A stretch of 64,000 nucleotides of DNA, taken from the NCBI RefSeq assembly GCF_003018235.1, contig NZ_CP027437.1; one strand, written 5' to 3'. Below the pieces are notes generated by a model. The model saw nothing but the letters and a program-made list of their open reading frames with translations. It did not search any database and had not been told where the DNA came from. The position numbers and the translations under genes were made by a program. Origin of the DNA: Escherichia coli (GTDB taxonomy: Bacteria; Pseudomonadota; Gammaproteobacteria; Enterobacterales; Enterobacteriaceae). Shown piece after piece: positions 32,317 to 35,924 of the stretch. Each line of letters opens with the position of its first letter. Position 1 is the stretch's first letter.

Positions 32317-32577
32317 GATTGGCCTGCGTTCAAAAATAAAATGGCATAGCGGGTTATGCCGAGAGCGGGCGATTTTAGGCGATTTTGTGATCTGATTAAA
32401 TGTTTTATTGCAATCGGTTGCTAAATTGCATTTTAAGAGGTGATTTTGATCACAGAATAAAAAGTGATCGTCAGGTTACATATATTTCAGATACGTAAAA
32501 TTAGGTAAAGGGATGGCCTTGTTCTTGAAGGCTATTTAGAATCTCTTCACTTGCTTTTTTTCTGCTCTGTTTGTTAA

Positions 32578-33159
<582 letters not shown>

Positions 33160-33168
33160 TGATTTCTC

Positions 33169-33190
33169 GCGCGGGCAATCTTGCCCGCGC
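33169..33190 (+). terminator. Possible terminator hairpin after ppiA
   Basis: gcgcgggcaa-tc-ttgcccgcgc perfect stem after the ppiA stop; weak T-tract. Confidence 0.4.
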
Positions 33191-33263
33191 TTCTGCTCTC
33201 CCGGCGTAACCCGGATTTGCCGCTTATACTTGTGGCAAATGGACACGTTCAGGGAGGCATCAA

Positions 33264-33431
33264 GTGAAGAAACTCACCGATAAGCAAAAGTCCCGTCTCT
33301 GGGAGCTTCAGCGTAATCGTAATTTCCAGGCCAGTCGCCGTCTTGAAGGCGTCGAGATGCCTTTAGTCACTCTTACTGCCGCAGAGGCTTTAGCGCGCCT
33401 TGAAGAGCTGAGGAGGCACTATGAGCGATAA
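33264..33431 (+). CDS. yhfG: Small protein YhfG (Fic-associated antitoxin-like partner)
   Basis: Not in ORF track. GTG-initiated frame gives [55 protein letters not shown] (55 aa); its stop overlaps the fic start by 11 nt. Confidence 0.75.
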
Positions 33432-34023
33432 ATTCGGCGAAGGGCGCGATCCGTATCTTTATCCTGGCCTTGATATCATGCGTAACCGGCTGAACATCCG
33501 CCAGCAACAGCGGCTGGAACAGGCCGCTTACGAAATGACGGCGCTGCGTGCTGCGACCATTGAGCTTGGTCCGCTGGTGCGCGGTTTACCGCATTTGCGC
33601 ACTATCCATCGCCAGCTGTATCAGGATATTTTCGACTGGGCGGGGCAATTGCGTGAAGTTGATATTTATCAGGGCGATACGCCGTTCTGCCACTTTGCCT
33701 ATATCGAAAAAGAGGGCAATGCCCTGATGCAGGATCTGGAGGAAGAAGGTTATCTGGTTGGCCTGGAGAAAGAGAAGTTCGTCGAGCGGCTGGCACATTA
33801 CTATTGTGAAATCAACGTGCTGCATCCCTTCCGTGTGGGAAGCGGACTGGCACAGCGGATCTTCTTCGAGCAGCTGGCGATTCATGCGGGCTACCAACTG
33901 AGCTGGCAGGGTATCGAAAAAGAGGCCTGGAATCAGGCAAATCAGAGTGGGGCAATGGGGGATCTCACCGCACTGCAGATGATATTTAGCAAAGTGGTAA
34001 GCGAAGCCGGGGAATCTGAGTAA
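33421..34023 (+). CDS. fic: Fic-family adenylyltransferase (AMPylation)
   Basis: 200-aa ORF containing Fic motif [12 protein letters not shown] (HPFx[DE]GNGR-like). Confidence 0.92.
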
Positions 34024-34054
34024 AATAGCGCGGTTCTTTCGTACCGGAGCCGCC

Positions 34055-34618
34055 ATGATCCTGCTTATAGATAACTACGATTCTTTTACCTGGAACCTCT
34101 ACCAGTACTTTTGTGAACTGGGGGCGAATGTGCTGATTAAGCGCAACGATGCGTTGACGCTGGCGGATATCGACGCCCTTAAACCACAAAAAATTGTCAT
34201 CTCACCCGGACCCTGTACGCCAGATGAAGCCGGGATCTCGCTTGACGTTATTCGCCACTATGCCGGGCGCTTGCCGATTCTTGGCGTTTGCCTCGGTCAT
34301 CAGGCAATGGCACAGGCATTTGGCGGCAAAGTTGTGCGCGCAGCAAAGGTCATGCACGGCAAAACCTCGCCGATTACACATAGCGGTGAGGGCGTATTTC
34401 GGGGGCTGGCAAATCCACTTACCGTGACACGCTACCATTCGCTGGTGGTGGAACCTGACTCATTACCAGCGTGCTTTGAAGTGACGGCCTGGAGCGAAAC
34501 CCGCGAGATTATGGGGATTCGCCATCGCCAGTGGGATCTGGAAGGTGTGCAGTTCCACCCGGAAAGTATTCTCAGCGAACAAGGACATCAACTGCTGGCT
34601 AATTTCCTGCATCGCTGA
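34055..34618 (+). CDS. pabA: Aminodeoxychorismate synthase, glutamine amidotransferase subunit
   Basis: 187-aa [22 protein letters not shown]... with catalytic Cys in GVCLGHQ. Confidence 0.95.
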
Positions 34619-34688
34619 TTTCTGATTGCTATTAAGTGATTTTTTATGCATATTTTGTGATTATAATTTCACATTGGTTTATGCGTAA

Positions 34689-35924
<1,236 letters not shown>

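Follow-up and report, generated by a model that had tools for sequence, protein, structure and literature searches.

The yhfG–fic pair of Escherichia coli combines a class I FicTA organization with a degenerate FIC signature

Several two-gene systems related to the yhfG–fic pair of Escherichia coli have been described. VbhT/VbhA of Bartonella schoenbuchensis (3SHG, 3ZC7) shares with it the FIC fold, a bicistronic layout with the antitoxin gene first, and an inhibitor whose [S/T]xxxE[G/N] motif provides a Glu that is salt-bridged to the final Arg (R2) of the FIC signature. VbhT, which is about 33% identical to E. coli Fic, differs in displaying the full HxFxEGNGRxxR signature, in AMPylating GyrB/ParE, in being toxic and plasmid-borne, and in carrying a secretion (BID) domain, while VbhA has three helices where YhfG has two and a loop. 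The closest solved relative outside the enterobacteria is Fic-1/AntF of Pseudomonas bijieensis 2P24 (8WT0; PMC13327609), with E = 1.2e-48 for Fic-1, and AntF is the only other solved protein matched by a YhfG profile. The contacts from S24 and E28 to R146 occur in both pairs with the same numbering; unlike in E. coli Fic, the motif of Fic-1 is the canonical HPFREGNGRAQR, and Fic-1 AMPylates GyrB at Y111 and is toxic. Bound to AntF, Fic-1 forms a deAMPylase in which Glu28 of AntF is needed (2026; PMC13327609), these activities being those of Fic-1/AntF. Doc/Phd of phage P1 is a distant relation only: Doc is likewise a Fic/Doc-superfamily enzyme with a deviant motif and a small helical partner, encoded upstream, that neutralizes it, but it differs in its motif, its antitoxin family (Phd) and its mobile-element context. 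Doc is a kinase, and thereby a precedent for an altered FIC motif going together with altered chemistry.

The E. coli pair itself was predicted to be an enterobacteria-specific toxin-antitoxin (TA) pair by Makarova et al. in 2009 (PMC2701414). Stanger et al. (2016; PMC5033356) then described a stable 1:1 YhfG–Fic complex with a Tm of 63 °C and its crystal structures, 5JFF and 5JFZ. The interaction of the two proteins, which a preliminary description of the present locus had proposed to check by pull-down, is thus already answered in the literature.

Genes and expression signals of the yhfG–fic locus

The window, that is, the whole stretch of 64,000 nt of E. coli DNA analysed here, carries the gene order tsgA (minus strand), ppiA, yhfG, fic, pabA, argD, yhfK (minus strand) and crp (minus strand), which is the E. 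coli chromosome context. The 55-codon, GTG-initiated ORF that the preliminary description had seen ending 11 nt into fic is there: yhfG runs to a TAA stop codon at 33429-33431, beyond the ATG that opens the 200 codons of fic.

33264..33431, plus strand: yhfG (ficA/EcFicA), encoding a 55-aa helical inhibitor ("antitoxin") of Fic
33421..34023, plus strand: fic (EcFicT), encoding a 200-aa FIC-domain protein
33421..33431, plus strand: the overlap ATGAGCGATAA, within which fic starts (ATG) and yhfG stops (TAA)

Chance ORFs of about 55 codons are found by the dozen in the same region, so the length of yhfG alone says little. YhfG is a member of its family by full-length matches above the curated cut-offs to Pfam PF10832 (E = 1.6e-24, 85.9 bits, cut-off 22.6) and to the NCBIfam equivalog NF007573 (E = 7.7e-38, 128.4 bits, cut-off 77). 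Fic matches Pfam PF02661 (Fic/DOC) with E = 5.9e-14 and a score above gathering, and the NCBIfam equivalog NF007672 with E = 6.4e-130. Chains A and B of PDB entries 5JFF/5JFZ were matched with E = 2e-133 and 3.9e-30, respectively. YhfG is identical to the YhfG part of 5JFF_B at 54 of 55 residues, the exception being S51R, and its GTG start appears as V in that chain. Three residues separate Fic from 5JFZ_A (R27 for H, E118 for A and S2 for G), of which the G2 of the crystallized chain is taken as construct-derived. The 1-kb stretch was found in 5425 of 5426 complete E. coli genomes. These family matches, the near-identity to the PDB chains, the presence throughout the species and the dN/dS values reported below establish that yhfG and fic are genuine genes and not chance ORFs. 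The locus is the known chromosomal yhfG–fic (EcFicA–EcFicT) pair of E. coli, already published, and the preliminary description was correct in calling the pair known in this species; in some genomes RefSeq names the small gene product "FicA/YhfG family antitoxin" and annotates the pair as ficA/fic.

Compared with EcFicT/EcFicA of E. coli K-12 (5JFF, 5JFZ; PMC5033356), the locus, the proteins, their motifs, the 11-nt overlap and the neighbours are the same, and the differences are allelic only: Fic R27 (H in K-12), Fic E118 (A in K-12) and YhfG R51 (S in K-12). For comparison across species we assembled 80 loci, one genome per species, from many Enterobacteriaceae genera, with Fic identities of 64–99%; counts out of 81 sequences include the window. 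In this sample Fic R27 (44/81) and YhfG R51 (59/80) are the majority residues, and E118 is the commonest one (28/81) at a variable position.

The signals that surround the two genes are as follows.

33169..33190, plus strand: GC-rich hairpin just 3' of the ppiA stop codon, with the 9-bp stem GCGCGGGCA/UGCCCGCGC
33217..33238, plus strand: conserved promoter block TTGCCGCTTATACTTGTGGCAA; TATACT at 33225-33230 is its -10 hexamer
33252..33257, plus strand: Shine-Dalgarno sequence of yhfG, GGGAGG, 6 nt before the GTG
33411..33416, plus strand: Shine-Dalgarno sequence of fic, AGG AGG, which is also yhfG codons R50 and R51, 4 nt before the ATG
34055..34618, plus strand: pabA, 31 nt 3' of fic

The hairpin has a minimum free energy of -25.8 kcal/mol (z = -3.35), and none of 200 shuffled sequences was as stable. 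It is probably the ppiA terminator, setting ppiA apart from the yhfG–fic unit; a consensus terminator scan of 32500-34800 did not list it, its T-tract being weak. A sigma-70 consensus scan of the same interval returned no promoter upstream of yhfG. The fic promoter has been described as strictly Eσ38-dependent (PMC3089606), and, the promoter being of the sigma-38 type, we placed it by means of the published primers and of conservation. The fic-promoter primers of that study map to 33058-33075 and 33316-33334, and its 256-bp BanI fragment, described as spanning -157 to +99, corresponds to 33079-33334; by arithmetic, transcription would start at about 33236, just 3' of TATACT. Over the 80 loci the block TTGCtGCTTATACTTGTGGCAA reaches 90% conservation or more, and TATACT is found in 73 of them. 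As it maps upstream of yhfG, the so-called fic promoter drives yhfG first. In agreement with a shared promoter, a meta-analysis of transcriptomes lists yhfG and fic among the genes that are induced along with the RpoS regulon in response to several stresses (PMC9501238).

Translation signals are conserved as well. AGGGAGG at the Shine-Dalgarno sequence of yhfG likewise shows conservation of 90% or more over the loci. The rare codon AGG is used at yhfG codon 50 in 59 of the 80 loci and at codon 51 in 58, in comparison with 19 of 534 other Arg codons of yhfG and 17 of 1157 Arg codons of fic, and the GGAGG core is kept even where the YhfG amino acid differs. With AGG this rare at other Arg codons, the AGG AGG pair clearly reflects nucleotide-level selection on the ribosome-binding site of fic. 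Downstream, the 31-nt gap between fic and pabA holds no hairpin, and pabA is probably the distal gene of the yhfG–fic transcription unit. A scan of the whole window with Rfam at gathering thresholds gave 0 matches, so that the pair and its vicinity contain no known RNA element.

The FIC signature and the inhibitor that faces it

Three stretches of the two genes are of interest here, the two motifs being read from sequence.

33583..33585, plus strand: fic codon G55 (GGT), which is wild-type here and altered in the classical allele fic-1 (G55R)
33823..33858, plus strand: degenerate FIC signature, Fic residues 135-146
33333..33350, plus strand: SRRLEG, YhfG codons S24-G29, the [S/T]xxxE[G/N] inhibitory (alpha-inh) motif

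Fic had been presented in the preliminary description as an AMPylation enzyme carrying an HPFx(D/E)GNGR-type motif, and neither point is supported as worded. Set against the canonical HxFx(D/E)GNGRxxR, Fic has Val139 at the acidic position, Ser141 at the Asn and Leu143 at the first Arg (R1), and retains both Gly and the last Arg (R2, R146). Fic thus lacks three ATP/Mg2+ ligands of the canonical AMP-transferases and, without the complete signature, does not belong to that group by motif. As for the enzymatic label, Stanger et al. saw neither auto- nor target adenylylation, even with the YhfG variant E28G, and attribute this chiefly to the Leu at R1 of the degenerate motif (PMC5033356). The same source describes a conserved new pocket that adjoins the motif, as well as the fic-1 (G55R) allele, and states that Δfic strains are viable and that the fic-1 phenotype needs 43 °C and cAMP. 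A 2024 review reports instead that ectopic EcFicT strongly inhibits growth of E. coli (PMC10886550), which fits a classical toxin and conflicts with the account given by the authors of the structures (PMC5033356).

The pattern of loss and retention extends beyond E. coli. H135, P136, F137, R138, G140, G142, Q145, R146, G55 and T40 are invariant in all 81 Fic sequences. Position 139 is I, L, V, A or F in 79 of them, with one Thr and one Asp; at position 141 Asn occurs 41 times, Ser 39 times and Thr once; and at position 143 there is a hydrophobic residue in 73 sequences and Arg in the other eight. Among the orthologues at this locus the most distant, that of Edaphovirga (64% Fic identity), still has the full HPFRDGNGRAQR, which indicates that the degeneration of the motif took place in situ.

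On the side of the inhibitor, S24 and L27 are found in 80 of 80 YhfG orthologues, E28 in 79 and G29 in 74. According to the published account (PMC5033356), YhfG embraces Fic through a mainly hydrophobic interface of 1641 Å2, and SRRLEG ends the first helix of YhfG and enters the active site. There S24 and E28 bind R146 (R2), E28 by a salt bridge, while R25 binds T40, and the E28G exchange drops the Tm of the complex by 10 °C. The preliminary description had suggested a search for homology between YhfG and Fic-inhibitory antitoxins; run as a profile of 31 YhfG orthologues against the PDB, this search matched AntF (8WT0_B, E = 0.0046), with ASrrLEG of the profile opposite ASLRLEG of AntF in the ASxxLEG segment. 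The profile did not reach VbhA, and a single-sequence phmmer search of the PDB with YhfG returned only YhfG itself and not AntF.

Conservation and vertical inheritance of the pair

The order ppiA–yhfG–fic is kept in 80 of 80 loci, and pabA follows in all but two, one of which lies at a contig end (L064; L072 at the contig end). In most loci pabA begins within about 35 nt of fic, a few having short insertions before it. The 11-nt overlap is present in 79 of 80 genomes, the exception being Shimwellia, and 72 of 81 sequences have exactly the string ATGAGCGATAA there. Pairwise dN/dS across genera (NG86) is 0.14 for yhfG and 0.10 for fic, and together with the conservation of residues these values show that both genes are under purifying selection. 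Fic has kept the catalytic His, the anion nest and R2, and YhfG the residues directed at R2, whereas the ATP/Mg2+ ligands of Fic have been lost. In this respect the present comparison independently arrives at the phylogenetic argument made by Stanger et al. (PMC5033356) and takes it slightly further.

A search of plasmids gave seven matches. Six are non-mobilizable records of 0.7–5.4 Mb, E. coli-like or Klebsiella, and apparently chromosomal or megaplasmid; the seventh is an odd 11-kb "K. oxytoca" record that is 99.3% identical to the E. coli sequence of the window. We rejected these matches as a sign of mobility, and none of the seven is a genuine mobilizable plasmid copy of the pair. With its fixed housekeeping slot, its vertical inheritance and no genuine plasmid copies, the pair would not be a mobile addiction module.

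Two further observations were made along this comparison and set aside. Fic matches PDLC04838 (2e-75), the model of PADLOC candidate defence system PDC-S04, a candidate only, and a defence reading was dropped for a vertically inherited locus between housekeeping genes. In the draft genome of E. albertii NBRC 107761, W13 of yhfG is changed from TGG to TGA and fic is intact, while yhfG is intact in nine other E. albertii genomes, whose Fic protein is the same. The stop, if real, would mean that Fic needs no inhibitor there; being strain-specific or a draft error, it is too weak to count as a natural antitoxin knockout or to argue for a non-toxic Fic.

A probable domesticated class I FicTA pair and its possible activities

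In every testable feature the pair corresponds to class I FicTA in the classification of Engel (2012), as described in PMC5033356. Fic has a FIC domain (PF02661, with full-length matches to Fic-1, 8WT0_A, and VbhT); a separate small protein with the [S/T]xxxE[G/N] motif, SRRLEG in YhfG, is encoded upstream; and the Glu that pairs with R2 is present as E28 opposite R146, in proteins nearly identical to 5JFF/5JFZ. The TA-like layout of a small partner and Fic, which the preliminary description had pointed out, is thus that of a published class (PMC5033356, PMC2701414). Layout, promoter, overlap and complex structure also agree with one part of the functional definition of a type II TA system, an antitoxin of the same operon that neutralizes by direct binding. 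On the other part, growth arrest by the toxin when it is free, the accounts conflict (PMC5033356, PMC10886550). The patchy, mobile distribution that is typical of such systems, a non-defining trait, is not seen.

We consider it likely, with a probability of roughly 80%, that the locus descends from a class I FicTA pair and is a domesticated module passed on vertically, sigma-38-driven and translation-coupled, in which Fic is most likely no AMPylase and is held off by YhfG. One transcript, begun at the sigma-38 promoter upstream of yhfG, carries both genes and probably pabA, and these genes are induced in stationary phase and stress. Translation of fic begins from the Shine-Dalgarno sequence in the AGG AGG codons of yhfG, at an ATG inside the last yhfG codons, so that both proteins come from one transcript. 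As the published structures of near-identical proteins show, YhfG wraps Fic 1:1 with SRRLEG in the active-site cleft, S24 and E28 clamping R146 and R25 contacting T40. Fic retains His135, the anion-binding glycines and R2; with the ATP/Mg2+ ligands gone (V139, S141, L143), it is most likely not an ATP-dependent AMPylase. From here on we infer only: Fic would be a FIC-fold transferase re-tooled for a different phosphate-containing substrate and target, with a donor that is no longer ATP, and YhfG would keep it off, or modify its activity, until some release signal.

That free Fic should instead be a growth-arresting AMPylase of GyrB/ParE like VbhT, YeFicT or Fic-1, with YhfG as a labile antitoxin in a classical type II TA system, we regard as very unlikely. 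Such a reading could draw on a fold and antitoxin binding mode like those of VbhT/VbhA and Fic-1/AntF (E = 3.6e-33 for VbhT and the value given above for 8WT0_A; RMSD 0.9–1.0 Å), on the canonical SxxxEG inhibition motif of YhfG, on the growth inhibition reported in PMC10886550, and on the basal same-locus orthologues that keep R1, Edaphovirga with its full motif (L080) among them. It is opposed by the replacement of three ATP/Mg2+ ligands and the hydrophobic R1 of 73 out of 81 sequences, by the adenylylation that was sought in vain even with E28G and the genetics of fic reported in PMC5033356 (viable Δfic strains, a conditional fic-1 phenotype), and by a strictly vertical and syntenic distribution unlike that of mobile TA modules. 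At the opposite end, Fic could be a catalytically dead pseudoenzyme or scaffold, kept with YhfG for a binding or regulatory role, e.g. in pabA/folate synthesis or cell division. Its constant adjacency to pabA points in that direction, and older genetics, by Komano et al. in 1991, reportedly tied fic to p-aminobenzoate/folate. The degenerate motif and the activity that went undetected (PMC5033356) would also fit, and the invariant His135 could in principle have a structural or binding role rather than a catalytic one. Nevertheless we hold a dead enzyme to be quite improbable: all 81 sequences keep His135, the glycines of the anion nest and R2; YhfG conserves the residues that it directs at the active site, which is hard to explain with no active site to inhibit; and a conserved new pocket lies beside the motif (Stanger et al., PMC5033356).

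The remaining alternative concerns YhfG itself, which in the EcFicT lineage may no longer be a releasable inhibitor but an obligate, permanent catalytic subunit of a two-chain enzyme with new chemistry. By analogy with Fic-1–AntF, the working complex could be a hydrolase that uses YhfG Glu28 to remove a nucleotidyl or phospho modification, R25 having arisen with the loss of R1 to rebuild the active site. This reading is bound up with a pattern that links the two proteins. The eight loci with Arg143 in Fic all have N, S, C, T or Q instead of Arg at YhfG position 25, and their Fic has E36 and F67; of the 73 in which residue 143 is hydrophobic, 72 have R25 in YhfG, and Fic has Y67 and mostly Ala, never Glu, at position 36. 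Stanger et al. (PMC5033356) note the A36/Y67 changes within Fic and the R25–T40 contact, and the sections consulted make no mention of covariation between Fic 143 and YhfG 25. We offer this covariation as a small new observation and a lead only, which is confounded by phylogeny, since the loci that keep R1 are basal branches and one or two events may account for it. An obligate subunit would be compatible with the covariation, with the conservation of S24, E28, H135 and R146, with coupled translation and with a very stable complex. In its favour, R25 accompanies nearly every hydrophobic R1 and none of the R1 that are kept, S24 and E28 are maintained in a lineage devoid of the AMPylation residues, translational coupling favours matched synthesis, and the stability of the E. 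coli complex and its 10 °C loss of Tm upon E28G (PMC5033356) are in line with a permanent assembly. On the other hand, the phylogenetic confounding weighs on the first of these points, and the literature describes no activity whatever of the complex. Besides, the acidic residue of the FIC motif, which binds the metal used by known Fic deAMPylases, is hydrophobic in Fic. Altogether we judge a working two-chain enzyme unlikely, and keep to the domesticated pair in which YhfG holds Fic off.

Earlier publications already cover the pair with its TA-like layout, its physical complex and its degenerate motif. Fic is nonetheless the founding member of its family, and its substrate, target and role are still sought 40 years after the isolation of fic-1. 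The active-site His, R2 and the Ser and Glu of the inhibitor are strongly constrained while the ATP ligands are gone, and therefore a real non-AMPylation activity of Fic, or an activity of the complex's own, would be worth seeking.

Fic position 143 and YhfG position 25

We compared the Fic and YhfG sequences of yhfG-fic loci from 80 enterobacterial species genomes (one per species; L001-L080) and of the window, focusing on R1, the first arginine of the canonical HxFx(D/E)GNGRxxR motif, which is a leucine in the window Fic. The two codons concerned are:

33336-33338, plus strand, codon of YhfG R25
33847-33849, plus strand, codon of Fic L143 (R1 position)

An arginine at R1 was found only in loci in which YhfG position 25 is not an arginine (8/8; L058, L064, L067, L071 and L077-L080), and R25 is present in 72 of the 73 loci in which R1 is replaced by a hydrophobic residue. 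Changes at Fic positions 36 (A36/E36) and 67 (Y67/F67) follow the same pattern. The alignments show an inter-protein covariation between R1 and YhfG position 25, confounded by phylogeny, which we treat as a lead only. The sections consulted of the paper on the YhfG-Fic complex structure (Stanger et al., 2016, PMC5033356) contain no description of this covariation.

Genomic setting of the gene pair

Over 1-54798 the window runs colinearly with E. coli TUM1226 at 98.7-99.1% identity; beyond this point the two diverge. The segment 54798-64000, which presumably resembles the chiA/gsp region of K-12, carries a 900-aa ORF (55038-57740) and several more ORFs that are absent from TUM1226 between tuf and bfd/bfr; the difference is an ordinary presence/absence polymorphism. 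No RNA family match was obtained with Rfam at gathering thresholds over the entire window (1-64000).

Over its full length, Fic (33421-34020) hits PDC-S04, a candidate single-gene defence family of PADLOC (E = 2e-75). The yhfG-fic locus does not lie in a defence-island context. A plasmid-collection record labelled Klebsiella oxytoca (NZ_CP069919.1, 11,338 bp) contains yhfG-fic with 99.3% identity to the window sequence, whereas the genes of real Klebsiella reach only about 72-75%. The record is probably a contamination or a mis-assigned contig and not a mobile copy.

Variation within and beside yhfG-fic

In Escherichia albertii NBRC 107761 (L005:3844-4011), W13 of yhfG is changed from TGG to TGA, a premature stop; the overlapping fic is uninterrupted (200 aa). 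The Fic of L005 is encoded unchanged in nine other E. albertii genomes, all with an intact yhfG of 55 aa. Either this is a natural case of an "antitoxin-less" Fic peculiar to the strain, or the draft assembly is wrong here.

Short insertions (0.1-0.18 kb) occur between fic and pabA in L037, L040, L053, L066 and L070, from Superficieibacter, Kosakonia cowanii and Pseudocitrobacter. In Enterobacteriaceae UBA5654 (L034), the shifted pabA position indicates a longer insert of ~0.8 kb between fic and pabA, equivalent to that of Enterobacter sp. kpr-6. In Enterobacter sp. kpr-6, ~0.8 kb of extra DNA (L026:4643-5429) separates the two genes and contains:

minus strand, RelE-family toxin gene (PF06296, E = 1e-36)
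HTH_3 antitoxin gene, together with the toxin gene

These form a typical mobile toxin-antitoxin pair adjoining the domesticated yhfG-fic pair.
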